Shown here piece by piece: positions 1 through 33,284 of a stretch of 64,000 nucleotides of DNA; position 1 is the stretch's first letter; each line of letters opens with the position of its first letter. The stretch comes from Eubacteriales bacterium. GTDB taxonomy: Bacteria; Bacillota; Clostridia; Oscillospirales; CAG-272. Location: contig JAZKYO010000108.1 of assembly GCA_045612185.1 (NCBI GenBank), positions 3,352-67,351 of the forward strand. The letters run 5' to 3'. A program made the translations under genes and the position numbers. The notes under the pieces are model-generated. The model saw only the letters and a program-made list of their open reading frames with translations, had not been told where the DNA came from and did no database searches.

Positions 1-917
1 AGCGCTACTACAAGGAAGTACATCCAAGACATCGCGGTACTTACAACCTGACCGTTAATCTGTCCGTACTGTGCCGAAATAAACGACATTACCTGGTTAT
101 CTACCGTAAAGGCGTCAATAATCGTATAAACCGCATTTACCAAAATCATCGGGCTTATCATAGGAAGCGTTATCTTCCAGAAAGTTTCCCAAGCAGTAGC
201 TCCGTCAATAGAGCAGGACTCATAGATTGCGGGCGAGATAGACTGAAGACCCGCAAGGAATATAAGCATCTGTACACCCGAACGGTTAACGATATTATAA
301 ATATCATTGATCATTGCGGCAACGTACTCAACGAGTTCGGTACCGACTTTCATGTTTGCAAACAGAGCTTCGATATCCATTGCGGATACGATTTCTGCCG
401 CAGCACTTGTTCCCGAACCGTCATCAATACCCTCTGCAGAATCCATGTAGTTACCGAGAATGTTCTGCGCCTCGATACCCTCCATAATACCTGTGGAAAG
501 AATAACGGGGATAAAGAATATTGCACGGAACACACCTCGTCCTGCCATGTTCTGGTTAAGCAACACAGCCATGAACAGCGAGAAGATAATAATTGCGGGA
601 ATGTCGAAGGCAAGATCTTGAAGACCGGAAATCAAGGTCTGAACAAAGCTTGCGTTGACAAACAGCGCTTCGTGATAGTTAGCAAAGCCAACCCAAGTCA
701 GAGAGAATCCTCCGCCCTGAAGGTTATTGATCTGGTTAAAGCTGAGATAAATTGAATCCCAGATTACGGGCAGGTAAATCAGAACAAGTCCGATTATAAA
801 AGGCATTACAAAGACCCAACCCGCACGCGCCTTTCTTCTGTCAAGAGAGGCTATCTTTTTCTTTTTCTTCTTTACCGGAACGTTTGGAGTTTCGGTAATG
901 TTTTCCTGATTTGTCAT
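1..917 (-). CDS. ABC transporter permease (carbohydrate type, MalF/LplB-like); its 3' end lies beyond the window start
   Basis: Absent from the ORF track because it runs off the edge. My translation from the ATG at 917-915 gives MTNQENITETPNVPVKKKKKKIASLDRRKARAGWVFVMPFIIGLVLIYLPVIWDSIYLSF..., followed by several hydrophobic spans. A GAGAGG-like RBS lies upstream. The gene starts 17 nt after the stop of 935..4558. Confidence 0.8.
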   Translation of the reverse strand, partial: MTNQENITETPNVPVKKKKKKIASLDRRKARAGWVFVMPFIIGLVLIYLPVIWDSIYLSFNQINNLQGGGFSLTWVGFANYHEALFVNASFVQTLISGLQDLAFDIPAIIIFSLFMAVLLNQNMAGRGVFRAIFFIPVILSTGIMEGIEAQNILGNYMDSAEGIDDGSGTSAAAEIVSAMDIEALFANMKVGTELVEYVAAMINDIYNIVNRSGVQMLIFLAGLQSISPAIYESCSIDGATAWETFWKITLPMISPMILVNAVYTIIDAFTVDNQVMSFISAQYGQINGQVVSTAMSWMYFLVVA

Positions 918-934
918 TTTAGTACCTCTCTTTC

Positions 935-3900
935 TCAGATTTTATCGTGGTCGATAGATACGAATCCGTATCTATCGATCTCGTATGTTTCGCCTTCATA
1001 CTCAACCTGAATAGCGAAATAGTTGTAGTTAAGGATAAACGTTCTGTAATCCTCACCGGGCTCACCGTAGGTTACAGCCACGATTGTTCCGTCATCAACA
1101 AGATATCTGCTGTTGATACCTGTTGTTTCTTCAACGGTTTCCTCTTCCTCTTCCTCAACAACCACTATACCGTCTGTGATAGCAAGGACGTTGTTATAAA
1201 CAGCCTCCGCAGCCACAACGAGTGCGTCTATTTGAGCACAAAGTGCCTTGGAAGGAGCAACGTTCAACTGGCAATCTGCGATAAACTGCGCAGAGTATGT
1301 GCCGTCAGCAATGAAATATGCGATAGACTCGTTGATTATACGGTCCTTATCATACACGGTTTCCTTAGCCTTGTTAATTGCATTATAGGAAGAAGCTACA
1401 GAATTCACAAATGCCGCATTGATACGCTCTCTTGTAGACTTAGCGGAACTTTCAAGAACTGTAACGTCATCGTCAGCGCCGGGATTTGCGATATTAGCCT
1501 CAATAGACTTAAGGCTTTCAACAAGAGCGGTGATAGTAGGAACAGCACCTTCGAGTCTGGAAAGCGCGGTTTCAGCACTGGTAATTGCGGAACCTGCTGT
1601 AGTAAGAGCAGTTGTTCTGGATTCAAGAAGCTCACGGCGAAGAGTTGCCGCAGCAAGCTCAGCCGCCTTCTTCTCTGCCTCTATGCGTGCTATCTCTTCA
1701 GCCTCAGCGTCAGCGACAAGCTCATCCTCATCGGGAATTCTCTGACCTACAAGCATCACGTGGTTAGTGATAAGCTTATCCTGAAGGTCATGAGTAACGT
1801 CGTTAAGTCTATGATATACGTCAACAAGCTGACCTGCCTCAAACTCGCCGTTTTCATTGTAGCTACCTGCCCAGATATCATATCTTACAGAGTAGTACTG
1901 GCTGAGGAACACGTCCTCTTTAAGAACAGTAGCGTTGTCGTACGAAAGCACGAAGTAGATGGATGCGCCGTTTTCTATTGCCTTAAGAATACCGTACTGG
2001 ATATTTCCTTCCATGTTGATGGGGCTTCCGGTATACTGAACGTATCCGTGAAGAACCATGCCCGTGAAAGGAATGGTATTACTTGCGGAGAGGTAACGGC
2101 TGGAATCGATGGGCATATCAAGAATGTAGTCAACGTACTGCCACGTATAGGCATTACCGCCGTTGGTCATTACGTTTCCGTAGGTATCGGAAAGATCCTT
2201 GAACGTCTGGATTGTAAACTCCTTAGAGTCCTCACGATTGTAGGGTTCGTCCTCATCAAAGTCGGAGTTAAGGTCTGTACCTATTGTTGCGACTGAGATA
2301 TTAAGATCTGTGCCCGAACCGTCGGCACTGTACTCAAGGTATTTATCAGCAAGCTTATTATAGAATCTGCTGAAGTAAGCAGGCGAAAGTGCAAGACCGC
2401 CGTCCTGAACCTGAGTCTGGTAGGTGGCGCTATAAGATGACTTTCCTATATAACGGTCGTCAATTGTCTTAACGGCGTGCTTCTTAAGAGAAAGTCCGTC
2501 AAACGCACCGATGTTGTTTACGTAAGCAAAGTCAAAGTCGGGGAAAATACCAAGGTTGTTTCCGTCTGTGGAAGAAACCTTATTGATGTTGTTAGCAAAT
2601 TCAAGAAGCTCCTTAAAGCCGTTCTTTCCGCCAACAGCCTTTTCCCACTTAAGTCCGTAAGGAACCGTGGAATACATTCCTCCGTTCGCATAACCTGTGA
2701 GCTTAAGGTTGATATTTGTAATATCAACACCTGCCTGCGAAAGATCCTTGTAGATCTGCTGGATATCCTCAAAGGTTGTAAGAGGAGTCATTACGTTTAC
2801 GGGAACAGAAAGTACTTTCTCGATAGTCTCTACTGTACCGAAGGTTTCAAGATACAGAGGAATCTGACTCTCAAACTTATCGGCAGCGATTCTCTCAAGA
2901 ACTGTGGTCTGGTTAGACGCGCTTTCGTTCTGTGTTCCTGTGGAATAGGGGCTGGTAAGGTAATCACGGTATGCGTAAGCCATACCTGTGTAATCAGCGG
3001 GATAGTAATCAGTAATTCCCTTTTCTGCCGCTACTGCGTCATCGGTAAGCATAATGTAACGCACCTTATAGTTTCCAAGATACTTTCTATCCGAAACAAC
3101 TGTCCAGGTAGAGTTACTTCCTACCGAGATAGAATCCGCGATATTGTACGTATCGGAAGGTCTGGGGTTAACCGAAAGCTGAACCGAGTGATACTCGCCC
3201 TTTGTTCCCAAGTGTGTAGACTTGATTTCGGCAAGAGCGTCACCCTCTTCGATAATTGCGAAGAAGCCGCTTGTTGTGGGAGTTTCATTCTCCACGATAG
3301 AGTACGTACCTGTTGCGCTCTTCTCGTAGACGTATGTATTATCCTTAACAACGCCGAAAATAGGCATTTTGAAAACTTCCTGGTACTTACTTGTTATAGT
3401 ATGATACGCGAAGTCATCACCGTAGATTTTACCGCCAACGGTAGTCATACCGGAATTGGCGAGGTCCTCAAATCTAAAGATCGCACCCGATCCGTCGGGA
3501 ATGAATGTATAACCCTGATTGGGACGTGCGGTACTGTACTGACCTGCTCCCATAAAGGGAAGGATTGAAATGTAAGAAAGCTGGTAGATAGACTCATCGA
3601 AACGGATACCGTTTGCGGGAAGAGTTACCGTAACTCCCATATCGTCAAGAATGTACTCAAGAGCCATCTTGAACACAGCGGGGTTCTGGTCTTCGCTTTC
3701 ATACTCTGTCTCGGTATGGTCCATATCGAGTTCCTCGTAGGTATACGCGGGACAGTGGGTTTTAATAAGTTCCTCAAGCATCTGAAGCTCTGCGGGAGCG
3801 ATATTGACGTCGATCATGTATACCGCGCCGAGCGTTGCCGTAATCGGAACCTCATTGTAAAGGTCGGCAAGAGCTCTGTCAGACGTCATCTTTGAGGGAT

Positions 3901-4558
3901 CTCTGAGCGTAAACAGAGACATGAACTTATTATTAAGAGTGAACTTCCAGTTTCTGTCACCGCTTGCCTCAAGTCCTGCTGCAAGAGGTTCGTAAATCTG
4001 AGTTCTGAAGCGCTCCTCAGTAATAAGTCTGGGAACGAGGTACTTTGTTTCCTCACGACCGATGGTATACTCAACACGCATACCGTTTTTAATGCTCTTA
4101 ACCTTAATCTGGTTATTCTTAGCGGCATCGGTATAGCTTGTGAATACGTTTGTACCTGTAAGCTCGTTTCCTGTATATCCTACGATAATCTGGGAAAGAA
4201 GCTCTGCCTTTACGGAAGCGGCAGCGGTACTGAGTCCAACGTCATAGGGGTTAGTCAGGAGAAGTTCTCCCGTTTTGGTATTTTTAACAGCTACCTCACC
4301 GGTAAACTCGTTAATCCAAAGCTGATAGTCGCCTTTTTCAAAGCGCATCGTCATTGTAGCGAGCTTTTCCTCAGCTGTGTAGTACACCTGAGTAAGGTAG
4401 TCTATTTTGGAAAGATCGATCTCTTCAACAGTTGTATCGGTTGTAGCGGTATCCGCTGTTTCCTCAGCGGACGTCTGCAACACGAACAGACCGGACAATG
4501 AACCGAGCAGCATGCAAACAGTCAAGAGCGTCGATATTATTCTTTTTGTAAATTTCAT
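935..4558 (-). CDS. Large secreted protein (1207 aa) of unknown function; possibly glycoside-hydrolase-like or DUF5696-like, with a C-terminal Ala/Glu-rich helical insertion
   Basis: N-terminal signal peptide MKFTKRIISTLLTVCMLLGSLSGLFVLQTSA|EE, with a GGAG RBS upstream. The body carries blocks such as GYTFIPDGSGAIFRFEDL, IPLYLETFGTVE and FPDFDFAYV. The tail is helical (AEAEEIARIEAEKKAAELAAATLRRELL...) and ends with a VVVEEEEEETVEE run. The family assignment is from memory only. Confidence 0.75.
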   Translation of the reverse strand: MKFTKRIISTLLTVCMLLGSLSGLFVLQTSAEETADTATTDTTVEEIDLSKIDYLTQVYYTAEEKLATMTMRFEKGDYQLWINEFTGEVAVKNTKTGELLLTNPYDVGLSTAAASVKAELLSQIIVGYTGNELTGTNVFTSYTDAAKNNQIKVKSIKNGMRVEYTIGREETKYLVPRLITEERFRTQIYEPLAAGLEASGDRNWKFTLNNKFMSLFTLRDPSKMTSDRALADLYNEVPITATLGAVYMIDVNIAPAELQMLEELIKTHCPAYTYEELDMDHTETEYESEDQNPAVFKMALEYILDDMGVTVTLPANGIRFDESIYQLSYISILPFMGAGQYSTARPNQGYTFIPDGSGAIFRFEDLANSGMTTVGGKIYGDDFAYHTITSKYQEVFKMPIFGVVKDNTYVYEKSATGTYSIVENETPTTSGFFAIIEEGDALAEIKSTHLGTKGEYHSVQLSVNPRPSDTYNIADSISVGSNSTWTVVSDRKYLGNYKVRYIMLTDDAVAAEKGITDYYPADYTGMAYAYRDYLTSPYSTGTQNESASNQTTVLERIAADKFESQIPLYLETFGTVETIEKVLSVPVNVMTPLTTFEDIQQIYKDLSQAGVDITNINLKLTGYANGGMYSTVPYGLKWEKAVGGKNGFKELLEFANNINKVSSTDGNNLGIFPDFDFAYVNNIGAFDGLSLKKHAVKTIDDRYIGKSSYSATYQTQVQDGGLALSPAYFSRFYNKLADKYLEYSADGSGTDLNISVATIGTDLNSDFDEDEPYNREDSKEFTIQTFKDLSDTYGNVMTNGGNAYTWQYVDYILDMPIDSSRYLSASNTIPFTGMVLHGYVQYTGSPINMEGNIQYGILKAIENGASIYFVLSYDNATVLKEDVFLSQYYSVRYDIWAGSYNENGEFEAGQLVDVYHRLNDVTHDLQDKLITNHVMLVGQRIPDEDELVADAEAEEIARIEAEKKAAELAAATLRRELLESRTTALTTAGSAITSAETALSRLEGAVPTITALVESLKSIEANIANPGADDDVTVLESSAKSTRERINAAFVNSVASSYNAINKAKETVYDKDRIINESIAYFIADGTYSAQFIADCQLNVAPSKALCAQIDALVVAAEAVYNNVLAITDGIVVVEEEEEETVEETTGINSRYLVDDGTIVAVTYGEPGEDYRTFILNYNYFAIQVEYEGETYEIDRYGFVSIDHDKI

Positions 4559-4583
4559 TCTATCAATCTCCTTTTCTGTTATT

Positions 4584-6767
4584 TTACAGTCGGTATCCGA
4601 TTTCGATAAAGATATTGGAAATAAATCCGACGATCTTACCGAGAAGTGTTGTAAACAAGAGTGCGATGAACATAATGAATACCATTCCGACGATAGAGCC
4701 GATTACGGTAATTATGTTCTTACCAAGCGAATAGTCGTGTGTAACCTGAACACCGAACAGAATAAGGAATCCTGCCCAGATGAACGCCAACGAGATGAAG
4801 AGGTTTACGATATCCATTTCGCTACCCGTTACCATATTGGAAACGATAGTCATAGGAATTATGAACAAAGGAAGGGGGATAAGCGCGTAAGATGTTGCCA
4901 CAAACACGTCCTTAAAGCTTCCTTCACCTTCAAACAGTGTGGTAAGACACCAGTTTGCGATTACGAACAGCATTACGGGCATTACAACACCGATAAGCTG
5001 AACGAAAATTGTGGAATACTGACCCTGAGGATTGAAAAGGTAACCCTGACCGATTGCCTGATAGTAGAAAGCAACAACGGTAACCGCGATATAAACAAGT
5101 GCGGCACGGACAGATCCTCTCTTTTCATGCTTCAAATCCCAGAATCCGTCAAAGGGATGGGTCATAAGATGGAAGCCGAAGAGAAGCTCTTTACCGAAGG
5201 TAATCTTTTCACCCGACGTAGCAGCTCTGATATTGATCTTGGAAATCTTCTTAGACAACCATCCGAAGAGAACGCAAATTGCGATAATCGCGATGGGTAT
5301 AAGCACGAAAATATTTTCAATCGTCTGCTTACGTATTTCGGCATAAGCAATTGAGTAGTTGTCGGTATCGTAAGCGGCTTTGTAGTGCTCGATAGCAGCC
5401 TCGTACTGACCGCTTCTGTAAAGAGCCTGACCTATACCGATATACGCGGCGTCAAAGTTAGAGTTTCTCATAAGAATCTCTGTCCAGTTATCTATAGCCT
5501 TATCGTATTCACGGTTAATCTGGTCTGTAACAGCCTGGTAAAGGATATCACCGTACTCTGTTCTCTCGTATACTGTAATACTCTTACTTGTACCAGAGTC
5601 AAGAACGAGAAGCTTTTCGCCCTGATACGCAAGAGCCTTAATGGTACTTACGTTACCAAGCTGAAGATTACCTCTGTCACCGAAAGCGAAGAGAAGATTA
5701 CCTTCGTTATCGTACGTAAATACTTTACTACGCTTTGTATCGGATATAGACCAAGTTCCCGATTCACCTACCGCAACGTCACCTACCGTGGAAACGCCCT
5801 TGATAGCGTTGGGGTCGTGGCTTGCGTTGGTAAATGCTATCTCACCTACGGGAGGATAGAAACCGTTACGTCTCATGATTTCGCTACCTGCGTTGTTAAG
5901 GAGCTTAACCTGAGAGTTTGATGCGGATCCGGTTTTACTTCTGATTGCAGACTCAACCTTAGCGGTGTCAATTTTATCAGAGGAAGCGTAAACGAAGCCG
6001 TCATCGGTTACCGTAATGTTACTGAAGGTTACGGGAACGAAGATAGTAGAAAGCTTTTTCTGCTCGTCAGTCTGGAATCGTCTCCAGATAATCTGCCAAA
6101 GCGAAATACTTACTTCCTGAGCACCGATAAATCCGGTAAATTCACCATCCTCGGTAAGAACGATAATACCCTGCGTTGTCTGAGAAGATACAACGTAAAT
6201 TCTGTTGTACTGGTCAACGGCAACAGCTACGGGGTAATAAACCGATCCTTCCTCGAAAAGTTCTGATTCGGGTGCATCAAGAACATAAAGGAAATTACCG
6301 CTGCGGTCAAATACTACGATACGGTATTTCTGAGTATCGCACACGTAGATTCTTCCCTCTTCAACAATATCGCCGTAACCGTTATACTTATTATCGGTTA
6401 CGTAAACGCCTCTGGGAGAAGCAAAGCTATCGGGTGCTCCAATTTCATTGGTAAATCCTGAGATTGTGAACTTATGCTTATAGTATCTGTCCAACACGAT
6501 TACCGAGTTAGAACCGGCATCAGCGATGTACACGTTAAGGTCATCATCGACAACCATATCGTAGGGATCGGAGATAGTAGCCCCTTCGGGAAGTCCCATA
6601 TAGGAAGAATTATATGTACCTACGGGAATATACGCATCGGGAGAATACAAGGGGTCTCCATTAATGGAGTAGGTATAAGTCTGGAACGAGTTGAATGCTC
6701 CAACCGGTACGGAAAGCAGCATTATGAGGGCAAATGCCAAAACTAAAATTTTTACTGATTTTTTCAT
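4584..6767 (-). CDS. Membrane protein with an extracytoplasmic NHL-repeat beta-propeller, a TPR segment and a C-terminal Yip1-type multi-pass domain
   Basis: Signal peptide MKKSVKILVLAFALIMLLSVPVGA. NHL-like repeats include IYVADAGSNSVIVLD, IYVCDTQKYRIVVFDRSGNF and IYVVSS. A TPR-like segment reads AAYIGIGQALYRSGQYEAAIEHYKAAYD. A TM helix follows, then HPFDGFWDLKHEKRGS plus about 5 TM helices typical of bacterial Yip1 domains. An AGGAGG RBS is present. Confidence 0.8.
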   Translation of the reverse strand: MKKSVKILVLAFALIMLLSVPVGAFNSFQTYTYSINGDPLYSPDAYIPVGTYNSSYMGLPEGATISDPYDMVVDDDLNVYIADAGSNSVIVLDRYYKHKFTISGFTNEIGAPDSFASPRGVYVTDNKYNGYGDIVEEGRIYVCDTQKYRIVVFDRSGNFLYVLDAPESELFEEGSVYYPVAVAVDQYNRIYVVSSQTTQGIIVLTEDGEFTGFIGAQEVSISLWQIIWRRFQTDEQKKLSTIFVPVTFSNITVTDDGFVYASSDKIDTAKVESAIRSKTGSASNSQVKLLNNAGSEIMRRNGFYPPVGEIAFTNASHDPNAIKGVSTVGDVAVGESGTWSISDTKRSKVFTYDNEGNLLFAFGDRGNLQLGNVSTIKALAYQGEKLLVLDSGTSKSITVYERTEYGDILYQAVTDQINREYDKAIDNWTEILMRNSNFDAAYIGIGQALYRSGQYEAAIEHYKAAYDTDNYSIAYAEIRKQTIENIFVLIPIAIIAICVLFGWLSKKISKINIRAATSGEKITFGKELLFGFHLMTHPFDGFWDLKHEKRGSVRAALVYIAVTVVAFYYQAIGQGYLFNPQGQYSTIFVQLIGVVMPVMLFVIANWCLTTLFEGEGSFKDVFVATSYALIPLPLFIIPMTIVSNMVTGSEMDIVNLFISLAFIWAGFLILFGVQVTHDYSLGKNIITVIGSIVGMVFIMFIALLFTTLLGKIVGFISNIFIEIGYRL

Positions 6768-6779
6768 TTGCTACCTCCT

Positions 6780-7652
6780 TTAGTCCTTCATACCGCTGGA
6801 ACCCATTGTCTCAATAATGTTCGACTGAGAAATGACGAATACTATAATAGGTACCATCATCATAATAACCGTCGAAGCCGCGCCCGCGCCCGCACGCTTA
6901 ATACCACCTGCCATAACCTGCTGGATAGCATAGTTGAAGGATTTAAGCTGCTCGGACTGGATATATACAGACGCTCCTGCGTTCCAAAGGTCCTTAAACG
7001 AGTAAATAATAAGTGTAAGCCAAGCGGGCTTAACCATGGGCATTGCTATTGTCCAATAGGTTCTAAGCTCGCTCGCACCGTCAAGACGTGCGCTTTCAAG
7101 CACCGCGTCGGTAACGTTGGTCTCCATGAACTGCTTCATAAGATAAAGACCAAGGGACGTTGCCCATGCGGGAATGATTCTTGACCAATATGTATCGATC
7201 CAACCAAGCTTACTCATGATAAGGAAGCTGGTGATAGCGGTAACTGTTGCGTGGAACATAAGAGAAGTTCTTACAAGTTTGAACATTCCCTTTCCGCCCG
7301 GGAACTTGATCTTAGCCATTGCGTATGCCGCAAGAGACGAGAAGAAAAGGTTACCGGTTGTACCGACGATAGATACGAATACTGTGTTGAATATGTATCT
7401 GGAGAAAGGCACCAGCGACGTATTCATAAGTGTAAACAGATCTGTAAAGTTTTTAAGTGTGGGGTTTACAACGAAGAATCTCGGGGGGAACATCCAAAGC
7501 TCGTCAAGAGGCTTCAACGACTGGCTTATAACGTAAACCATGGGAAGGAACATGAAGAGTCCGAGGATACCGAGTACAAAGGTAATACCCGCGTCACCGC
7601 CGCGAGAACGGTTAAGTACGACTTTATGATTTCTTGTTCTTAATTTTGCCAT
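6780..7652 (-). CDS. Carbohydrate ABC transporter permease (MalG-type)
   Basis: 290 aa and multi-TM. Its length and topology, with a conserved cytoplasmic loop region, resemble binding-protein-dependent transport inner-membrane components. It lies 1 nt downstream of the preceding permease. Confidence 0.9.
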   Translation of the reverse strand: MAKLRTRNHKVVLNRSRGGDAGITFVLGILGLFMFLPMVYVISQSLKPLDELWMFPPRFFVVNPTLKNFTDLFTLMNTSLVPFSRYIFNTVFVSIVGTTGNLFFSSLAAYAMAKIKFPGGKGMFKLVRTSLMFHATVTAITSFLIMSKLGWIDTYWSRIIPAWATSLGLYLMKQFMETNVTDAVLESARLDGASELRTYWTIAMPMVKPAWLTLIIYSFKDLWNAGASVYIQSEQLKSFNYAIQQVMAGGIKRAGAGAASTVIMMMVPIIVFVISQSNIIETMGSSGMKD

Positions 7653-7653
7653 A

Positions 7654-8601
7654 TTACGTACCTACCTTTGCAATAATATTCTTTACAAGCATATTGGAGC
7701 CTACCATTACAAGGAACAGGATAACCGCAATAGCCGAAGAATAACCTATCTCGAAACGCTGTCCGCCGTAGTCGTCAAGGTGGTGCATTATCGTATGCGC
7801 CGCATAGTCAACCGACGGGAATCCACAAAGTGCTGTAACGACACCGCCGAAGCCGAACGCGCCGGTAATAGCCATGATAGCACCGAACATAAGCTGAGGT
7901 CCCATATTGGGAAGTGTGATATACCAAAGCTCCTGCCATCTGTTCTTAACGCCGTCAACCGCGCCTGCCTCAAACTGAGACTTATCTACGCCCTGAAGAC
8001 CTGCGATGAACGCAAGGAAGGACGTACCAAGCGAGGTCCAAAGTGCAACCACGATACACAAAGGCATTACGTAGGATGCGTTCTGAAAGAACTGAATAGG
8101 CTCTGTTACAAGTCCCATTTCAAGAAGTTTGGAGTTTACCCAACCGTAAGCGTCACCCGAGAAGAGGGTCTGCCAGATAAGGTAAACCTGACCCGAAATG
8201 GAGGGAGCGTAGAATACAAGAGTAACCACAGCTCTGATTTTGGGAGGAAGCTCGTTGATAAACCAAGCAACCAGGAAAGACATAAGGTAGGATACAGGAC
8301 CTACTATGATAGCGAAAATAAATGTATTCTTAACCGCTGTGAGGAATATGTCGTCATCAAGGAAGAGACGCACATAGTTGTCAACGAACACAAAGTTCGG
8401 CCACTCAAGCAAGTTAAAGTCCGTAAAGCTGAACACGATTGACAGTACAACCGGCGCGATGGTGAACAAGGTGAAAATGAGCATAAAGGGAGCGACCATT
8501 ACATATGCTACCCAGTTGCGCTTCATTTCCTTCCAAGTCCACTGCGCCATTGTCATGTCTTTACGCGAAACAGCTTTCTTTTCTGCTGTTTTCTTTGACA
8601 T
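7654..8601 (-). CDS. Sugar ABC transporter permease (MalF-type)
   Basis: 315 aa. The N-terminus KEMKRNWVAYVMVAPFMLIFTLFTIAPVVLSIVFSFTDF is typical of CUT1-family permeases, and the protein has 6 TM segments. Confidence 0.9.
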   Translation of the reverse strand: MSKKTAEKKAVSRKDMTMAQWTWKEMKRNWVAYVMVAPFMLIFTLFTIAPVVLSIVFSFTDFNLLEWPNFVFVDNYVRLFLDDDIFLTAVKNTFIFAIIVGPVSYLMSFLVAWFINELPPKIRAVVTLVFYAPSISGQVYLIWQTLFSGDAYGWVNSKLLEMGLVTEPIQFFQNASYVMPLCIVVALWTSLGTSFLAFIAGLQGVDKSQFEAGAVDGVKNRWQELWYITLPNMGPQLMFGAIMAITGAFGFGGVVTALCGFPSVDYAAHTIMHHLDDYGGQRFEIGYSSAIAVILFLVMVGSNMLVKNIIAKVGT

Positions 8602-8651
8602 TACTTTTCTCCTTAATTAATAGAATAGATTTTTATTTCTGATTAAGCAAA

Positions 8652-11600
8652 TTAGTTCTGGTAAGAGACAAGTGCGTTATACGCGTCTTTCATAAGCTCG
8701 ATTGCTTTTTCAAGACCTGTCTTATCAGCAGAATTAAGGGTGGATCCTGCAAGCTCGCCCTCAAGCTGAGCGATTGCGTCTACAAGAATTTCCATCTGTT
8801 GTTCTTCACTAATCTTAACGTCGACGTCAGCAGCTCTTCTGATATTATTTATCATATCAGCATACTTGCCCGTCACCGCGGAGCTGAGAGTATAATCAAG
8901 ATCTTTCATCTTGATTTCTTCTACGCCCTTAACAGTTTCATATACACCCTTATTGATAGTAAGTTCTCCTTCAGAAAGAAGTGTATATACCTGAGCCAAT
9001 CTCTTTTCAGAAAGCTTCTGACCTACGTAATCAAGAGTTTCAAGATCGAACTCACTGCGTTTTCTGGTAATTTCTTTATTGATTGTATTGATGTACGACA
9101 GCAACTCCTCAACGGGGTCCGCGTCGTTGTTGATCGCAGCCATGTAAGCGAACTTAGCATAACGCTCAATGATGTACGAACCGGGATAGTTGGGAATCGA
9201 TGCAAGGTTGTTGAACTGAAGCTGGATCTGCTTGATCTCATCAGCTGTCCAAGGCAAGCTCTCAAGCGCGTTAAGGTTTGCGGTGGGATGCTTTGCGGAA
9301 GGACCGAGAATAGATACCATTTCGTTAGAGTATTTCTCCTGGCAGTCCGCACCGGAGTGCCATCTCATAAAGTCCCAAGCGCCCTCAACGTTTTCACAGC
9401 CCGTAATCATAACGATTGCGGATACGCCGGAAACAGAGCAGTTGTTGATATTACCGAACTCGTCCTCGATACCGGGCATAGGATAGAAGCCCCACAAGCC
9501 TTCGATTTCGGTTGCAAATACCTTCAATTTATTATATGTATCTGTATAACCGGCAAATCCGATAGGCATTTCACCTGTTCTGAAACGGTTAGCAAAGTCG
9601 TATGAAAGCGGGAAAGAGTACATAGTAAACATGTTGGTCATCTTTTCAAACGCCTCAAGCGAAGTATTTGCGTCAAGGTTAATTCTCATACCGTTATCTG
9701 CGAAGAGGTCTCCGCCCATCTGGTATATGAACATTCTGTACTCAACGTGCATACCGATCTGCATGTTGTTAGCCTGAAGAACGGGAATTGCGGAATAGAT
9801 ATCGTCCCAAGTCTTGGGAATATCAAGGTCAAGCTCCGCAAGGATGTCCTTTCTTACGAACATCATATTAAAGGACTGTGTTTCGGGAAGTCCGTAGTAG
9901 TGCATTGTACCAACCGAGTCCTCAATACCAAGAACGATCATCGCCGCCTCGTTGAACTCTCTTGTCTCGGGATTTGTAACGAGATCTTCAAAGTCAGCGC
10001 AATTCTCTATGGGCATAAGCGCTCCACGGATAGCATAGTTAATTACGTCAGCCTGACCAAGACCGATATAAACATCGGGGCCCGTCTGAGAAAGTATGGA
10101 AGGAAGAAGTGTACCGCCCGCAACGAGCTTAAGGTTTACAGCCGTTCCATACTGAGGAGTAAAGTCGTTATTTACAAGGTTTCTGATAACCTGTGTCTGG
10201 TCACGACCGTATGCAAGCCAAACTTCAACGATTTCAGAATCTTCATCGTCGTACTCTTCGGTTGCACCCATTCTATCGTAATTTCTAATGAAGGACTGGA
10301 AGAAGCTTCCCATTTCATGACCGAAGGACTGGAAGAAGTTAGCCTCAGCCTTAGGAAGTTTGTTTCCTTTACCCTGAACAAGAAGATAGTCTATCTGAAG
10401 GGGTTGCGTTTTTGCGTCACTAATCCAAGTACCGAGCGAACCGATATAGGATTTAAGCTGTGTAAGGTTCTTAGCGATTTCGTTCTCGGGGTCGCCGCCC
10501 ATTCTCTCAAGAAGCCAAGCAACCTGATCAAGGGTAGCTACCATCGAGCCCTTAATTCCCGCCATAGCCTGAAGCTTTGCGGAAATATCATAAATAAGGA
10601 TCGACTGCTCCATAAGGTCCTTAACCACATTGGGAAGAACTCGCTTAAAGCCGTAGTCACGGTAATCGTCGGGCTCAGCGCCTGTAAGCTTAAGAATAGA
10701 AAGATAGTCAGAGTTTATAGACTCAAGCGCGCCTTCTATCTGGCTTACAAGGTCACCCATAGAACCAAGTGTAACGGTAAACTCAACGGTATATACAACG
10801 CCTTCCTTGAAATAGAAATCAAAGTCGGTATTGCCGTCGGAAAGTATCTTAGTCTGCCACTCGGAAGAATAGTCGAATCTGAGTTTTGCAGCCTCTGCAA
10901 ACGGAGTACCGTTGTAGTATCCCTCAAGGTTGCCAAATTTAGCCTTATACTCTTCCTCAGTGTAGTTTGTATAGATAGCCAAAGATCTTGAAGCATACAT
11001 ACCGTCAAGAACCGATTGGCTGAATCTTGCTACAATATTATATACGCCACTGTTATCCACAGAAAAGTTCCAAGTAAGTGCCTGACCGGCGGTCTGCCAC
11101 TTGTCACCGCCCACACCGCCGATGGTGTTAAGCATAGTGTTCTTAGTGGTGATGGGGCTTGTTATAGCGCTTCTTGTATCCTCAATGGGATAAATAGTCT
11201 GCGACGTTGTGGACGTAAGATACTCACCCTCTACCTTAACGCTGCTTGTCCCCGCGGGAGCAGACGCATAATACGCACTTGCCTCTGCATAAGGTACGTA
11301 ACTTGCGTGAGGAACGAGCTTAATGCTCTTAATAGCCATAGGCTCGCTGACACCGGTGAGAGAAATTACGGTATTATCGGATTTTTCGAATACGAACTCG
11401 AAAGACTCGGAATAATAACCGTCGGTGTCGTGAATCTCATATGTCATCCATTTGGGAGACTGAACTATGGGAGAACGAATTTCATTGTGGTCGATATCAG
11501 AGCTAAAGAATCTCACCTTAAGCTCCTCGCAAAGATAGTTGTATCTCTCCGCAGTCCAATACTCAGGCATTTCATATTTAATGAGAGTTGCGTTGTCAAC

Positions 11601-12293
11601 CGTTTCGCTGGTAGCAACAATACCAAGCTCTCTCGCCTTATTCAAGTGGTATTCAGCGGTTTCGCCCTTGCCAAGTTTATACACCGCATTTACGTAATCA
11701 TTGGTATAAATCTTTTGAAGGGTAAGATATCTCGCCTCGAGGAAAGGAATTGCCGAATCAATACGGAAGATACGCTCAACAGCAGTTGATTTACCTACCG
11801 AATTTCCCGCAGCATCCACCTGAGTGGGATAATACTCAATTACCACGCTGTATCTTGCGGTTTCGGGGATCGACACATTCCACGAAACAGTACCTGTGGC
11901 GGGGGTGTAGAGAGCCTCTACTCCGTCAAAGGTTCCGACCGCGTACTCCGCGTCGCTCTGCTCGGCATTGACGTCCTTAACAGCGTCAATAACGATCTCC
12001 TCGGTTGCCGCGTCAACCGTCCAGACTCTTTCTACGATTTCTTTTCCGTCCGCGTCAACCGCACCGGTATACTTAGAATACTTTCTGAAGTACTCGTCGT
12101 AAGAAATCGAATTAAGAATCTCTCGTACATCGTCGATGGTCGCATCTGTAACCGATGTGTTCTGATTACCTGCCGGCTTCGGTGAAATCAGTATCGTGTC
12201 ATCGGCAGCATACGCCGCGATTCCGGCACTTGAAAGCACACAGAGCAGAGCAAGTACCAAAGAAAGGAATCTTTGGAATTTCTTCTTGTTCAT
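8652..12293 (-). CDS. Giant extracellular solute-binding protein (1213 aa): N-terminal beta-sandwich/CBM-like modules, a helical linker, a family-1 SBP domain and a helical tail
   Basis: The track ORF 8652..12533 is trimmed to the ATG at 12293, which sits 7 nt after AGGAGG (12301-12306). The trimmed protein starts MNKKKFQRFLSLVLALLCVLSSAGIAAYA|ADD, a signal peptide. The C-terminal half is SBP-like (IVEVWLAYGRDQTQVIRNLVNNDFTPQYGTAVNLKLV..., PVLQANNMQIG, LWGFYPMPG). The N-terminal ~700 aa hold two similar modules (TVSWNVSIPETARYSVVIEYYP and ALTWNFSVDNSGVYNIVARFSQ). Confidence 0.85.
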   Translation of the reverse strand: MNKKKFQRFLSLVLALLCVLSSAGIAAYAADDTILISPKPAGNQNTSVTDATIDDVREILNSISYDEYFRKYSKYTGAVDADGKEIVERVWTVDAATEEIVIDAVKDVNAEQSDAEYAVGTFDGVEALYTPATGTVSWNVSIPETARYSVVIEYYPTQVDAAGNSVGKSTAVERIFRIDSAIPFLEARYLTLQKIYTNDYVNAVYKLGKGETAEYHLNKARELGIVATSETVDNATLIKYEMPEYWTAERYNYLCEELKVRFFSSDIDHNEIRSPIVQSPKWMTYEIHDTDGYYSESFEFVFEKSDNTVISLTGVSEPMAIKSIKLVPHASYVPYAEASAYYASAPAGTSSVKVEGEYLTSTTSQTIYPIEDTRSAITSPITTKNTMLNTIGGVGGDKWQTAGQALTWNFSVDNSGVYNIVARFSQSVLDGMYASRSLAIYTNYTEEEYKAKFGNLEGYYNGTPFAEAAKLRFDYSSEWQTKILSDGNTDFDFYFKEGVVYTVEFTVTLGSMGDLVSQIEGALESINSDYLSILKLTGAEPDDYRDYGFKRVLPNVVKDLMEQSILIYDISAKLQAMAGIKGSMVATLDQVAWLLERMGGDPENEIAKNLTQLKSYIGSLGTWISDAKTQPLQIDYLLVQGKGNKLPKAEANFFQSFGHEMGSFFQSFIRNYDRMGATEEYDDEDSEIVEVWLAYGRDQTQVIRNLVNNDFTPQYGTAVNLKLVAGGTLLPSILSQTGPDVYIGLGQADVINYAIRGALMPIENCADFEDLVTNPETREFNEAAMIVLGIEDSVGTMHYYGLPETQSFNMMFVRKDILAELDLDIPKTWDDIYSAIPVLQANNMQIGMHVEYRMFIYQMGGDLFADNGMRINLDANTSLEAFEKMTNMFTMYSFPLSYDFANRFRTGEMPIGFAGYTDTYNKLKVFATEIEGLWGFYPMPGIEDEFGNINNCSVSGVSAIVMITGCENVEGAWDFMRWHSGADCQEKYSNEMVSILGPSAKHPTANLNALESLPWTADEIKQIQLQFNNLASIPNYPGSYIIERYAKFAYMAAINNDADPVEELLSYINTINKEITRKRSEFDLETLDYVGQKLSEKRLAQVYTLLSEGELTINKGVYETVKGVEEIKMKDLDYTLSSAVTGKYADMINNIRRAADVDVKISEEQQMEILVDAIAQLEGELAGSTLNSADKTGLEKAIELMKDAYNALVSYQN

Positions 12294-12515
12294 AAGTTTT
12301 CCTCCTGAAAAATTGCTGAGCATAATGGTCGCCACGAAGCCCGAAGGGGTTAACCGCGGTATAACACGAACGTCATAAGACGAGGTGGGGTGTTCTGCAC
12401 GGAATCCAATAGGCTTATCCGAAGACAAAGCCCTCGTATCCCCCGAAAAAAGACTATTGATTTTCACCAAAAGCCGTTCAAACGAGAAACGGGCGCAAAA
12501 ATGCCATATTTCAAT
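12294..12515 (-). promoter_or_regulatory. Long (~220 nt) structured 5' leader of the SBP operon
   Basis: It lies between the predicted TSS (about 12515) and the ATG at 12293. A UUCG-capped hairpin GGCUUUGUC-UUCG-GAUAAGCC spans 12412-12432. A long-range helix pairs ACGAGG with CCUCGU (12432-12437 with 12380-12385). A second UUCG hairpin is UAUGACG-UUCG-UGUUAUA. A 5'-proximal hairpin (12473-12494) is followed by UUUU. Confidence 0.45.
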
Positions 12516-12521
12516 GACATT

Positions 12522-12550
12522 ATAATACCACACAACAACCGAAATGTCAA
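12522..12550 (-). promoter_or_regulatory. Sigma-A-type promoter of the SBP operon
   Basis: On the minus strand: TTGACA (12550-12545), a 17-nt spacer, then TGgTATTAT, an extended -10 (12527-12522). Confidence 0.6.
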
Positions 12551-13280
12551 GATTTTGAAGAGATGAAAATTTTGTGTGTTTATATTATGAAGGAGTTTTG
12601 CACAAAGACAAAACGCATAAATAACGCCCATCAAGTCCAAACGCAAAAAAAGCAACACCGTATTATGGTAAATACAATTTACCTCTGCTTCGGTGATTTT
12701 GTCAGATACACCTCTTGTTTTGTGCAATTTGACAATGCCATTTTTTCGACAAAACACTCCCACTTCCGCAAGGTAAACCACATTTACCTGAATTGAACCC
12801 AATTTTTCGCATCTCAGAACTTTCGGTTCATGTTACGCCAAATAATTTTTGTGCAATTTCAACAATTTCCCGCTTCTTTTTTCTACACTAAAATTTCACA
12901 CCGTTTTTTGAATATTATTTTCAGCGACAGTTTGTTTTTCTACTTTCCAAGCCAAATAATAACATAAAATTACAATTATACCTTTAATTTACTTTTACAC
13001 CTTTTATTTCTCGGAATAAGCATTTGCGCTTGTGAAACACAAACAAAATGAATTTTACCACCAATCAGAACGCGAACAAACGACATTCGTTTGACAACGG
13101 AGTGAACAAGAGAACACTTATTTATGGGAGTGTTATACAATACGGTAAGTTGCCAATTCCCTATTGTGAGCGTTTGTGTTACCGCGAACCTACTCGCACT
13201 TACACATGCATATTGTTGTCAAAGATTAACGCACCGCAAATGTCACCTTGCGATGCGCGCAACATCCGTTTTGGGGTGAT

Positions 13281-13319
13281 AAAAAATACGCCGACCGATG
13301 TAAAACTCGGTCGGCGTAT
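13281..13319 (-). terminator. Rho-independent terminator downstream of nifU
   Basis: A 13-bp stem pairs ATACGCCGACCGA with TCGGTCGGCGTAT (13286-13298 with 13307-13319). A U-run follows on the minus strand (plus-strand A-run 13281-13286). Confidence 0.8.
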
Positions 13320-13394
13320 AGCCCATTCTGTTGAAATTGGCCCGCAAAACAACAAACTTCTCACGTCAAGCAATCGCTCACCCACACATGGAAA

Positions 13395-13829
13395 TTAGTG
13401 TCCGCCTTCTCCCACTTCACAGTCATGGCAGTGTGCAGGAGCAGGTATTTCCTTGTCAATTCCATTCTTTTTGTAATAATCCGCAACAGCAGCTTTTATA
13501 GCCTCCTCGGCAAGAACTGAGCAGTGAACCTTTACAGGCGGAAGCCCTTCAAGAGCTTCTACAACCGCAGCATTGGTAAGTTCGAGCGCCTCGTCGATAC
13601 TCTTCCCTTTTACAAGCTCGGTAGCCATGGAAGAAGTTGCGATAGCGGCACCGCAACCGAAGGTCTTGAATTTAACATCAACGATAATGTCATTTTCAAC
13701 CTTAATGAACATCTGCATTATATCTCCGCATTTTGCGTTGCCCACTGTTCCCACGCCGTCCGCGTTCTCAATTTCTCCCACGTTTCTGGGATTTTTGAAA
13801 TGATCCATTACTTTTTCTGTATATACCAT
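13395..13829 (-). CDS. nifU: Fe-S cluster assembly scaffold protein NifU/IscU
   Basis: MDHFKNPRNVGEIENADGVGTVGNAKCGDIM...FKTFGCGAAIATSS...VHCSVLAEEAI carries the three conserved Cys motifs of U-type scaffolds. Confidence 0.95.
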   Translation of the reverse strand: MVYTEKVMDHFKNPRNVGEIENADGVGTVGNAKCGDIMQMFIKVENDIIVDVKFKTFGCGAAIATSSMATELVKGKSIDEALELTNAAVVEALEGLPPVKVHCSVLAEEAIKAAVADYYKKNGIDKEIPAPAHCHDCEVGEGGH

Positions 13830-13860
13830 ATCTTTTTTACCTCTCTTACAGTTTGATTTT

Positions 13861-15027
13861 TCAGTTTCCGGGATATATAGGACTCATGGCGCGAAGCCTC
13901 TCTACGCTTTCCCTGACAGCCTTAATAATATTCTCAACATCTTCCTCGGTGTTATCCTTGGAAAGCGAGAAACGGAGCGAGCCGTGGGCGTCCTCGATAT
14001 CAACACCTATGGACAAAAGAACATGAGATGCCTCAAGCGAATTTGAGGAGCAAGCCGATCCGGTAGACGCGCTTATTCCACTCATGTCAAGCCAAAGCAA
14101 AAGACTTTCGCCCTCAACGTAGGAAAACGACACGTTGGCATTTCCCGGAAGTCTGTTTTCTCGGTCTCCGTTAAGCCTGGAATACGGAATTTCAAGCAAG
14201 CCATCGATAAGCTTATTTCTGAGAGCTCTGACCTTCTCCATGCCGTCAAGACTCTTTACAGCCGATTCAACAGCCACGCCAAGCCCGCAAATGTAAGGCA
14301 CGTTTTCGGTTCCTCCGCGTTTTCTGCGTTCCTGACCGCCACCGTCGATGAGGTTCTTTATTCTTACACCCTTTCGAATATAAAGAGCACCAATTCCCTT
14401 TGGCGTGTGGATCTTATGTCCCGAAAGGCTAAGCATATCAACGCCTAATTCTTTGACGTTTACAGGAATATTTCCCACCGCCTGAACAGCGTCGGTAAAC
14501 ATAAGCGCTCCGTTTGCGTGCGCGATTTCGGAAATTTCGGAAATAGGCTCTATTGTGCCTATTTCGTTATTCGCCATCATGATGGCTACCAAAGCAGTAT
14601 TATCATCAACGGCGTCACGAAGCTCGTCCATCTTGATAAATCCACCTTCGTCTACGCCAACGTAAACAACCTCAAAGCCCTCCTTGGCAAGCGCTTCGCA
14701 AGTGTGAAGCACCGCGTGGTGTTCAATTTTACTCGTTACTATCTTACGGCGTTTTTTGGAGGCGTAAGCCGCGCCCTTTATAGCCCAGTTATCTGACTCC
14801 GAGCCGCAAGACGTGAAATATATTTCCTCGGGCAGGCAACCAAGTGCCTCCGCTATTTTTGCGCGCGCATCATCGACGACAGCCCTTGCCTTCTGTCCGT
14901 CTTCGTGAAGGCTTGACGGATTACCCCAAAAATCTGTAAAGCAAGGCATCATCGCGTCAATAACCTCTTGCGAAACCGGTGTTGTCGCTGCGTTATCGGC
15001 ATATATTCTCTTATTTGATTCGCTCAT
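13861..15027 (-). CDS. nifS: Cysteine desulfurase NifS (PLP-dependent)
   Basis: YADNAATTP, the PLP-lysine motif [21 protein letters not shown], and the active-site loop STGSACSS. It sits upstream of nifU. Confidence 0.95.
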
Positions 15028-16004: not shown

Positions 16005-16033
16005 TTGCAATTTGCACGCATATATGGTAGAAT
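16005..16033 (+). promoter_or_regulatory. Promoter of the potABCD operon
   Basis: TTGCAA (16005-16010), a 17-nt spacer, then TGgTAGAAT with the -10 at 16028-16033. Confidence 0.5.
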
Positions 16034-16133
16034 TATTCTCGAAACTGTGCATCATCCGTTTTTTCGGTGGATCTTGCGCGGTTTCCGCAGTTTTGCGACT
16101 TATTCTGCAAATACGAAGGAGTATTTATGCCAA

Positions 16134-17252
16134 ATGGAAAAAAAGCTTATAGAGCTGAAGGGTATCTGCAAACAGTTTGACGGCACGCAGATTCTTAATT
16201 CAATTGACCTTGACATTTTTGACAAAGAATTCGTCACGCTTCTCGGCCCTTCCGGATGCGGAAAAACCACATTGCTCAGAATCATCAGCGGTTTCGAGCA
16301 GCCCGACAGCGGAGACGTAGTTTTTGACGGAGTTATTATAAATGATATTCCCCCGCACAAGCGTAACGTAAACACCGTGTTCCAGAAGTATGCGCTGTTT
16401 CCTCATCTGAACGTTTTTGACAACATAGCTTTCGGGCTTCGTCTCAAAAAGGTTCCCGACGCCGAGCTCCGCACGAGGGTGAAGGAAATGCTGGCGCTTG
16501 TTAACCTTAAAGGGTTTGAACGCAAAAACGTTAACTATCTTTCGGGCGGTCAGCAGCAGCGCGTGGCAATAGCCCGCGCGCTTATCAACACCCCCAAGGT
16601 GCTGTTGCTTGACGAGCCTCTCGGTGCGCTTGACCTAAAACTCCGCAAGGATATGCAAAATGAGTTAAAAAACATTCAGAAGAAAACAGGAATTACATTT
16701 ATATACGTAACCCACGACCAGGAAGAAGCTCTTTCCATGTCTGACAAGGTAGTGGTTGTTGCTGACGGCTGCATACAACAGATCGGCACTCCTACCGATA
16801 TATATAACGAGCCTGTCAACGCTTTTGTCGCGGACTTTATCGGAGAATCAAACATAATCGACGGCGTTATGCTTGATGACTACCGCGCGAGATTTTCGGG
16901 TCACACATTCGAATGTCTTGACAGCGGATTTGAAAAAGGCGAAAAGGTTGATATAGTCGTCCGTCCCGAGGACGTTGACGTTGTAAGTCCCGAAAAAGGA
17001 ATGCTCCAGGGCGTAACAACATCGGTTACTTTCAAGGGCGTTCATTACGAAATCATCGTAGATATCGGTGGTTTCAAGTGGATGATACAGACTACCGACT
17101 ACGTAGGTCCTAACGAAAAGATCGGTCTTTACATAGAGCCCGACGCTATCCACGTTATGAAGAAATCCGAATTCTCGGATATGTTTGGCGATTACTCATC
17201 CTTCAGTGACGAAATGGACAGGCTTTCAGACGCCACGGAGGTAGAAGAATAA
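16134..17252 (+). CDS. potA: Spermidine/putrescine ABC transporter ATP-binding protein
   Basis: The track ORF is trimmed to the ATG at 16134 ([17 protein letters not shown]). Walker [10 protein letters not shown], signature [15 protein letters not shown], Walker [12 protein letters not shown], and a C-terminal TOBE-like domain. Confidence 0.93.
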
Positions 17253-18076
17253 TGAACAAAAAGCCTTCATTGCTCTATCGCATGGCGGCAGCTCCTCACG
17301 TCGTGTGGTCTGTTATGTTCATTATCGCGCCGCTTATCTTCGTTATTTATTACGCTTTTACCGACTATGAGGGAAATTTCACGTTCGATAACATTTTTGC
17401 GCTCTCCGAGCATACAGAAACCTTCTTTCTCTCAATAGCCTTCTCGCTTATAGCTACTGTTGTTTGCCTGCTTATAGGCTATCCTTTAGCTTACGCGCTT
17501 ACAAAGATGAAGCCGAGAAACCAGAAAATCCTTATTATGTTGCTTATGCTCCCCATGTGGATGAATCTGCTTATACGCACCTACTCCATGATGGCTATAC
17601 TTGACGACGGAGGATTTATCAACTCGATTCTCTCAATGCTTGGTCTTGGGGAGATTCACGTTATCGGTACTTCCGGTGCGGTTATCTTCGGTATGGTGTA
17701 CAACTTTTTGCCGTACATGGTGCTTCCCATTCACTCTATAATGTCCAAGCTTGACAAAAGGTGCATTGAAGCGGCTGCCGACCTTGGTTGTACCCCTTTC
17801 CAGACCATTACCGAGGTTATTATTCCCCTTACGGTTCCGGGCATTATATCGGGAATAACCATGGTTTTCGTGCCTTCCATAAGCACTTTCTATATTTCAC
17901 AAAAGCTTGGCGGAGGTACGTTTGACCTTATAGGAGACACTATTGAGCGCCAATTCATGAACCCGTCCACCTACAACGTGGGTGCGGCTATTTCCTTGGT
18001 TATGATGATACTTATTCTTATTTCCGTGGGAATAATGAACAAGTTCTCAGACGGTGAAGGAGGTGTAATGCCGTGA
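17252..18076 (+). CDS. potB: Spermidine/putrescine ABC transporter permease
   Basis: 274-aa multi-TM permease. Its start overlaps the potA stop (TAATG). The operon order is potA-B-C-D. Confidence 0.9.
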   Translation: MNKKPSLLYRMAAAPHVVWSVMFIIAPLIFVIYYAFTDYEGNFTFDNIFALSEHTETFFLSIAFSLIATVVCLLIGYPLAYALTKMKPRNQKILIMLLMLPMWMNLLIRTYSMMAILDDGGFINSILSMLGLGEIHVIGTSGAVIFGMVYNFLPYMVLPIHSIMSKLDKRCIEAAADLGCTPFQTITEVIIPLTVPGIISGITMVFVPSISTFYISQKLGGGTFDLIGDTIERQFMNPSTYNVGAAISLVMMILILISVGIMNKFSDGEGGVMP

Positions 18077-24208: not shown

Positions 24209-24307
24209 ATTGGTATTCCTCTGTACAAAATCACCATATTTATATATAAATTATACTATACCCGAAAAGAAAAATCAAGTACAATTAGAATATAAGGAGG
24301 GGATTTT

Positions 24308-25780: not shown

Positions 25781-25781
25781 A

Positions 25782-27176: not shown

Positions 27177-27187
27177 GGAGAATAAAA

Positions 27188-28033: not shown

Positions 28034-28044
28034 GGAGCGTTACA

Positions 28045-28953: not shown

Positions 28954-28962
28954 AAATATTAC

Positions 28963-28996
28963 AACCACGCTGAGTTATGCCTCGGCGTGGTTTTTG
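28963..28996 (+). terminator. Rho-independent terminator
   Basis: Stem CCACGCTGAG/CTCGGCGTGG (28965-28974 with 28981-28990, one G-U pair) followed by TTTTTGTTT. Confidence 0.75.
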
Positions 28997-29128
28997 TTTG
29001 AATAATCAGGCAAGCTTGCCATAGTGTTTGCAAAATTTTCAATATAGTCAACCAAATATTGCATTTACAAATACAAAAATATAATGTAAAATATACTTAA
29101 AGAATTCATTTTAACGTAGGTATAAAAA

Positions 29129-31493: not shown

Positions 31494-31498
31494 AACAA

Positions 31499-31525
31499 CC
31501 CCTTAGGAAATAATTTCCTAAGGGG
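31499..31525. terminator. Bidirectional hairpin between convergent genes
   Basis: 12-bp stem CCCCTTAGGAAA/TTTCCTAAGGGG (31499-31510 with 31514-31525). Confidence 0.7.
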
Positions 31526-31531
31526 AAGTAA

Positions 31532-32380: not shown

Positions 32381-32386
32381 GGCTTT

Positions 32387-32415
32387 ATTATATCATTATA
32401 TATGTTTTTATTCAA
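32387..32415 (-). promoter_or_regulatory. Promoter placed so that the AraC mRNA would be leaderless
   Basis: On the minus strand: TTGAAT (32415-32410), 17 nt, TATAAT (32392-32387), 6 nt, then the ATG at 32380. No Shine-Dalgarno is present. Confidence 0.45.
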
Positions 32416-33276: not shown

Positions 33277-33284
33277 CGCAAAAG

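Follow-up and report, generated by a model that had tools for sequence, protein, structure and literature searches.

The left end of a 64,000-nucleotide stretch of DNA from an Eubacteriales bacterium (contig JAZKYO010000108.1 of assembly GCA_045612185.1, positions 3,352 to 67,351; the whole stretch is referred to as the window) raises the question of why an ATP-binding cassette (ABC) importer of the CUT1 type should be encoded together with three very large proteins: a solute-binding protein (SBP) of 1213 residues, a membrane protein that fuses NHL, TPR and Yip1 domains, and a 1207-residue protein of the DUF5696 family. Six co-oriented open reading frames (ORFs) lie here on the minus strand with intergenic gaps of 50, 1, 12, 25 and 17 nt, in order (Table 1). 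These gene calls agree with a first-pass annotation of the DNA, which had described a single minus-strand unit with gaps of 1-50 nt and the order SBP-permA-permB-Yip1-DUF5696-permC. The answer favored here, held with about even confidence, is that the operon may encode a surface machine that would capture, trim and import a glycan in a single-membraned gut Clostridium, with a CUT1 importer as its base and the Yip1 fusion as its putative scaffold. All functional statements rest on predicted folds.

The operon extends beyond the window, and the full unit was read from the closest relative (locus L001), in which the DUF5696 protein is 83% identical and permC is 91% identical to the window permC. 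This unit comprises SBP, permA, permB, Yip1, DUF5696, permC, permD and a terminator with a 15-bp stem 21 nt past permD. The third permease had been thought to open a further set of genes; permC is indeed followed by more, but in this relative only by permD and then the terminator. The same seven genes are present in relatives at 60%, 50% and 43% identity, and no ATPase, second binding protein or regulator is found in the operon of the window or of these closest relatives (83-43% identity). A scan of 185,579 species, with one genome per species, yielded 492 genomes that encode a relative; the best 80 of these are nearly all metagenome-assembled genomes from gut samples (human, ruminant, horse and other) and belong to uncultured Clostridia, Eubacteriales or Oscillospiraceae. 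A tblastn search of the seven proteins against 85 loci revealed identical order and strand throughout, with genes missing only at contig edges, and loci whose DUF5696 protein is as little as 39% identical, in genomic contexts that differ, still keep the order. The co-occurrence of Yip1, DUF5696-like and oversized SBP genes, which the first-pass annotation had mentioned for other Firmicutes, is therefore real and strictly conserved, and every locus that reaches far enough keeps the order. In the literature searched, there is no mention of DUF5696 or PF18952 and no description of the seven-gene system.

The components of this unit are conserved to different degrees. Relative to the window proteins, median identity is 77% for permA, 79% for permB, 70% for permC and 65% for permD, and it is 55% for the Yip1 protein, 51% for the SBP and 47% for the DUF5696 protein. 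The permeases and the Yip1 protein are nearly fixed in length across the loci; the SBP ranges from 988 to 1272 aa and the DUF5696 protein from 1019 to 2043 aa. A matched reach of these two proteins is unsupported, as their lengths correlate weakly (r = 0.24). The flanks of the operon vary, with NifU upstream in 12 of 52 loci. Housekeeping functions dominate a Pfam census of the 112 nearest flanking ORFs (AlaRS 15, SufBD 7, plus NifU and methyltransferases), among which no regulator or carbohydrate-active enzyme recurs; the called flanks of loci L001-L005 likewise hold no regulator. Because the seven-gene order is conserved while the flanking genes change, chance adjacency is excluded. In many of the relatives (L006-L085), Fe-S assembly genes (nifS-nifU or sufBD) lie upstream and a convergent alaS lies downstream, and this site may be the ancestral position of the operon. 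A GH123 gene adjoins the operon in two loci of the same set.

The SBP is made up of a region that resembles carbohydrate-binding modules (CBMs) of families 6 and 35, a helical bundle, a genuine CUT1-type core and a variable tail. The only Pfam match of the window protein is to CBM_35, over 45 residues (382-426) and with 31.4 bits against a cut-off of 28. Its homologues carry PF01547 (SBP_bac_1) and PF13416 (SBP_bac_8), and the family profile matches Listeria Lin1841 (5ysb), the ligand of which we take to be beta-1,2-glucooligosaccharides, with E = 1.5e-9 over ~300 residues. Because of these homologue matches and the profile match to a solved binding protein, the window protein is taken as a binding protein. 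An AlphaFold2 (AF2) model of residues 30-700 (pLDDT 85, pTM 0.82) runs from the sandwich region through the helical bundle, with helices at model residues 481-599, to the first strand of the core, and a Foldseek search with this model returned the CBM6/CBM35 entries 2cdo, 2w1w and 2vzp with a probability of 1.0. Mean identity is highest in the core (0.66), followed by the bundle (0.57), the two halves of the sandwich region (0.48 and 0.38) and the tail (0.17), which, on our own reading of its letters, may be helical.

The DUF5696 protein carries the putative enzyme of the system. Pfam DUF5696 (PF18952) matches residues 276-936 with E = 8e-122 and 408 bits against a cut-off of 25.6; the permease, NHL-TPR-Yip1 and DUF5696-like domain calls of the first-pass annotation were all reproduced by Pfam. 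Clustered at 50% identity, the family comprises 5258 clusters with E <= 1e-3, 2480 of them with E <= 1e-30. As judged from an AF2 model, the beta-sandwich plus (beta/alpha)8-barrel fold of glycoside hydrolase (GH) families GH101 and GH129 is present in the head. The Foldseek neighbors of this model are the GH129 entries 5opq/8rzk (E = 4e-13) and 5wzp (NagBb, E = 3e-11), with a probability of 1.0 for 5opq and 5wzp, followed by the GH101 entries 5a59 (E = 2e-9, probability 1.0) and 2zxq, at E of about 1e-8 to 1e-9; matches to GH31 and GH13 were weaker. So far as is known, enzymes of families GH13, GH31, GH101 and GH129 all have alpha-linked sugars as substrates. The barrel is the best-conserved part of the protein: residues D766, D768, R775, D777, N802, H837, N848 and E862 are invariant in 193 non-identical sequences, and E850 is kept in 189 of the 193. 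The acidic loop D766-x-D768-E769 comes after predicted strand 4, presumably the expected nucleophile site of the GH13/31/101/129 group, and may provide the nucleophile here. The matches to solved structures that sequence and profile searches of the DUF5696 protein did return were rejected as coiled-coil noise from the stalk.

Behind the head, the stalk is 56-980 aa long in 79 homologues (median 422) and ~190 aa long in the window protein. Its length differs from one species to another, whereas the head and foot are constant, and the total length of DUF5696 proteins reaches 2545 aa. Of 144 cluster representatives, 143 have the foot, 135 of them at 20 aa or less from the C-terminus, and its invariant residues are Y1152, V1162, Y1164, G1165, L1176, N1177, N1179 and Y1192. 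This foot is proposed to be a docking module. The ~3100 codons that the first-pass annotation could not assign to a characterized family are still unassignable at the sequence level, but folds can now be given to most of them. Its suggestion of a glycan capture and import machine is borne out in so far as the large proteins have features tied to carbohydrates, namely a CBM6/35-like region, a CUT1-type core and a GH129/GH101-like head. None of the findings that it had named as fatal to its view came up.

How two proteins of this size would be kept at the cell surface is a question in itself. In the window, the SBP and the DUF5696 protein each contain an N-terminal hydrophobic segment and no other. 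Homologues of both have cleavage sites of the Ala-x-Ala type, and only 3 of 63 SBPs and 1 of 83 DUF5696 proteins contain a lipobox. Both giants carry cleavable signal peptides, and neither is anchored by a lipid or a membrane segment. In a single-membraned cell, the anchorless SBP and DUF5696 protein would therefore both be lost unless held by other proteins. The candidate parts for this holding, we infer, are the foot, the extracellular propeller and TPR domains of the Yip1 protein, and the bundle or tail of the SBP. The Yip1 protein begins with a signal peptide and is matched by Pfam Yip1 (PF04893; 56.9 bits against a cut-off of 28.6) as well as by NHL and TPR; residues 555-703, in its Yip1 domain, contain five hydrophobic segments. 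It has 3720 homologues, and the best 120 listed share its length and its Yip1 domain. Among 21 diverse members, two motifs never vary, HPFDGFWDLKHEKRGS of the linker and NWCLTTLFEGEGS of the membrane domain, and the membrane part is therefore argued to do more than anchor. The only precedent that the literature searched turned up for a Yip1 role with an ABC transporter is YknW, which belongs to the Yip1 family and modulates how the YknXYZ ABC complex is assembled (PMC4887032).

The permeases are of standard make. BPD_transp_1 is matched by Pfam, with NCBIfam matches as well, and the EAA-type coupling motif is kept in all four, so that a partnership with an ABC ATPase is expected. PermC contains a loop of ~65 aa between membrane helices. 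The two MalF/MalG-type pairs are distantly related (28% over 108 aa for A and C, 23% over 243 aa for B and D) and are accompanied by one SBP. The first-pass annotation had seen no ATPase gene, and none is present in the operon of the window or of its relatives; in the 64-kb window the sole ABC ATPase is PotA. This protein was rejected as the partner of the operon, as it belongs to a complete potABCD-type polyamine ABC importer at 16005-20129 on the plus strand. Firmicute CUT1 systems commonly share an MsmX/MsmK-type ATPase encoded elsewhere in the genome, and for this reason the missing gene is unremarkable.

From these parts, a sequence of events can be proposed. The CBM region of the SBP would hold a polymeric or tethered glycan, and the stalk would lift the DUF5696 head off the membrane. 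The head would then cut the glycan, probably at an alpha-linkage given its likeness to GH13/31/101/129 enzymes. The core of the SBP would bind the freed oligosaccharide and hand it over to one or both permease pairs, with energy presumably supplied by a shared MsmX/MsmK-type ATPase encoded elsewhere. The NHL/TPR/Yip1 protein would serve as the membrane scaffold that holds the anchorless SBP and the foot of the enzyme, and it may aid transporter assembly much as YknW does for YknXYZ. A bolder version, offered tentatively and in our estimate somewhat unlikely, is that the seven proteins form one supramolecular complex at the cytoplasmic membrane, in which the Yip1-propeller-TPR protein docks the CBM-bearing SBP and, by its foot, a stalked glycoside hydrolase of a new family non-covalently; the whole would be the Gram-positive equivalent of the Sus-type complex of Bacteroidetes. 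In gene order the operon can be split into two modules, SBP-A-B and Yip1-DUF5696-C-D, and this allows a reading in which the docked enzyme supplies the second pair. Within such a complex, this second pair may take its product directly from the enzyme and not from a classical binding protein, and the length of the stalk (56-980 aa) would be matched to how thick the cell wall is.

Several observations weigh against a capture, trimming and import machine. No ATPase for the operon has been located, one SBP stands beside two permease pairs and the model offers no explanation for this, and it is conjectural that the foot and the SBP dock to the Yip1 protein. The AF2 model of the head (residues 32-1000) is of moderate quality (pLDDT 72, pTM 0.56), the pLDDT of the acidic loop is below 50, and the Foldseek TM-scores are low (0.25-0.36). 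Because the model is unreliable at the acidic loop and these scores are low, the mapping of catalytic residues is kept tentative. No glycoside hydrolase family appeared among the Pfam matches of 18 DUF5696 members up to E = 5, and neither sequence nor profile searches matched the DUF5696 protein to a solved chain of GH101 or GH129. No catabolic enzyme, kinase or regulator is encoded in the operon or its flanks and the neighbors are nifSU/suf, alaS and secA, which is unusual for a nutrient locus. Finally, the genomic comparison covers the best 80 of the 492 relatives.

The control region bears on the main rival explanation. The promoter scores 11/12, so that calling it consensus was slightly too strong, but it is the top promoter match in the 13.9 kb scanned (positions 1-13900). 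The block around it (12608-12491) is the sole upstream stretch kept in the sequence of the closest relatives. Rfam gave no match to the ~230-nt leader, either at gathering score or at E <= 1; the folding z-score of the leader is -0.44, which is nothing unusual, and no cre site was found. A strong, near-consensus promoter with neither a cre site nor a riboswitch would suit a housekeeping role in the envelope, in which the system trims, remodels or recycles the wall-associated or capsular glycopolymer of the cell itself and re-imports the fragments. Such a role is also favored by housekeeping flanks (nifSU or sufBD, alaS, secA) that lack regulator and catabolic genes, by an architecture that does not change from relative to relative, although variation is usual in nutrient loci, and by highly conserved permeases (median identity 77-79%). 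However, CBM6/35-like modules and GH101/129-like enzymes typify foraging on foreign glycans, the relatives come almost wholly from gut samples, the window also contains, 17 kb from the operon, a cluster for amino-sugar catabolism that includes a GH109 gene, and no wall-synthesis genes are linked to the operon. A role in the upkeep of the cell's own envelope is considered unlikely, although the envelope function that the first-pass annotation had raised as its alternative keeps some weight from the housekeeping surroundings and the lack of a regulator.

It is more doubtful still, and in our view improbable, that the DUF5696 head is a non-catalytic, lectin-like pseudo-enzyme and the system an adhesin, a sensor or a binding-only feeder of ABC translocons. 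The head has no hydrolase signature at the level of primary structure, its catalytic residues cannot be mapped on the model, and a long stalk with a terminal head recalls a fibrillar surface adhesin. Nevertheless, D766, D768, D777, H837 and E862 are invariant and E850 nearly so (189/193), all in a barrel that is conserved better than any other part of the protein, and an active site is a likelier cause of such constancy than a variable lectin surface. That an ordinary CUT1 sugar operon merely sits beside unrelated large genes is scarcely credible, for although its permeases and SBP core are of standard CUT1 types, the seven genes keep their order and strand wherever the contig reaches while the flanks change, the gaps measure 1-50 nt, and the two accessory genes are placed between the permease pairs.

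The machine that would capture, trim and import a glycan can also be set against known systems. Like the CUT1 importers MalEFGK2, UgpBAEC and MsmEFGK, the operon encodes a family-1 SBP core and MalF/UgpA- and MalG/UgpE-type permeases with EAA loops. It differs from them in an SBP of ~3 times the usual size that adds a CBM6/35-like region, a bundle and a tail and lacks a lipid anchor, and in having two permease pairs per SBP with two large accessory proteins between the pairs. The bifidobacterial mucin route employs an extracellular GH101 (EngBF) or GH129 (NagBb) enzyme plus an ABC importer of the freed sugars. The two systems would share a logic in which an extracellular enzyme of this fold releases sugars for ABC import, GH129 and GH101 being the top fold neighbors of the head, but the likeness is at the level of the fold only, and the present operon places the putative enzyme beside the transporter and equips it with a stalk and foot in place of a covalent wall anchor. 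In Gram-positive polysaccharide utilization loci, for which a linked transcriptional regulator is defining, a transporter and a glycan-active enzyme are likewise encoded together, the enzyme here being predicted from its fold; in contrast to such loci, the operon has no regulator or cytoplasmic catabolic genes, a fixed architecture and housekeeping neighbors. The SusCDEFG system of Bacteroidetes offers a functional analogy in that surface glycan-binding proteins, an enzyme and a transporter act as one unit. There is no homology, and Sus is a TonB-dependent outer-membrane system, whereas the operon would encode an ABC system of the cytoplasmic membrane in a single-membraned cell. In YknWXYZ of Bacillus, the transporter is a MacB-type exporter, and YknW, a small membrane protein, is not known to have a propeller outside the cell or a TPR domain. 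The likeness to the present operon is that a Yip1-family accessory protein modulates the assembly of an ABC complex (PMC4887032).

Table 1 Features of the operon, with coordinates given as positions in the window
Feature	Coordinates	Strand	Description
Promoter	12550-12522	minus	Sigma-70-type; TTGACA, 17-nt spacer, TATTAT, extended TG upstream
5' leader	12294..12521	minus	~230 nt; without recognizable regulatory RNA
SBP gene	12293..8652	minus	1213 aa; ATG start behind GGAGG; signal-peptidase-I type signal peptide; without lipobox
SBP residues 73-508	10770..12077	minus	Beta-sandwich region, CBM6/CBM35-like fold
SBP residues 509-630	10404..10769	minus	Helical bundle joining the CBM region to the binding core
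SBP residues 631-1095	9009..10403	minus	Family-1 (CUT1-type) oligosaccharide-binding core
SBP residues 1096-1213	8655..9008	minus	Variable C-terminal tail; mean identity 0.17, gap fraction 0.33
permA	8601..7654	minus	315 aa; MalF/UgpA-type ABC permease; EAA motif EAGAVDG...ITLP
permB	7652..6780	minus	290 aa; MalG/UgpE-type ABC permease; EAA motif ESARLDG...IAMP
NHL/TPR/Yip1 protein gene	6767..4584	minus	727 aa
Yip1 protein layout	4584..6767	minus	NHL beta-propeller 25-405, TPR 406-482, membrane helix and cytoplasmic linker 483-552, Yip1 domain 553-727
DUF5696 protein gene	4558..935	minus	1207 aa
DUF5696 residues 32-940	1739..4465	minus	Head: N domain, beta-sandwich and (beta/alpha)8-barrel-like region; predicted GH129/GH101-like fold
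DUF5696 residues 941-1145	1124..1738	minus	Ala/Glu-rich helical stalk of variable length; mean identity 0.18
DUF5696 residues 1146-1207	938..1123	minus	Conserved C-terminal beta foot, ~60 aa
permC	917..1, off the left window edge	minus	UgpA-type permease; first 305 of ~325 aa; EAA motif ESCSIDG...ITLP
permD and terminator	beyond the window	minus	Seen in L001

The start of the SBP gene requires some care. A GTG at 12533, which a mechanical ORF search would use for a protein of 1293 aa, was rejected, as the homologues all begin with MNKKKFQR and thereby match the ATG at 12293. The frame is open for 80 codons upstream of the true ATG, through the leader and into the promoter, and automatic callers may report the 1293-aa form; in locus L002, an over-long SBP call of the same kind (1324 aa) is present. 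Further upstream, the nifU gene ends in a strong terminator at 13319-13286, and the spacer at 12551-13286 is free of ORFs. The distance from the nifU stop to the SBP start is ~1.1 kb, compared to a median of ~800 nt across 46 loci, and a similarly long spacer precedes the SBP gene in L001, L004, L005 and others. In this spacer, no conserved small ORF and no Rfam match was found, and only the promoter block is conserved.

The remaining genes of the window are mostly housekeeping. A regulated sugar cluster at 23381-34084 lies ~17 kb from the operon and is not linked to it. Its genes encode a PocR/AraC regulator, an FGGY kinase, a fucose-isomerase-like protein, a class II aldolase and a DUF4432 protein, together with an NagA-like amidohydrolase, a GH109 enzyme (30234-31493), a glucosamine-6-phosphate isomerase and two further AraC regulators; this content suggests the catabolism of an amino sugar, possibly GalNAc. 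A single tRNA gene (34432-34504, plus strand; Rfam, 69 bits) lies between the genes for an AraC-type regulator and a glycerophosphodiester phosphodiesterase.

The operon matters beyond this genome for several reasons. DUF5696 is a large family for which no literature was found, and its GH129/GH101-like fold and invariant acidic loop make it a candidate new glycoside hydrolase family. The arrangement as a whole provides a model, which can be tested, of how a single-membraned cell could keep binding proteins and enzymes that lack an anchor at its surface and couple them to ABC import, and it gives bacterial Yip1 proteins a concrete role to test. The operon is found in hundreds of species of uncultured gut Clostridia, sampled from humans, ruminants and other animals. 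It may therefore define one of the core traits of these bacteria, be it for feeding or for the envelope.

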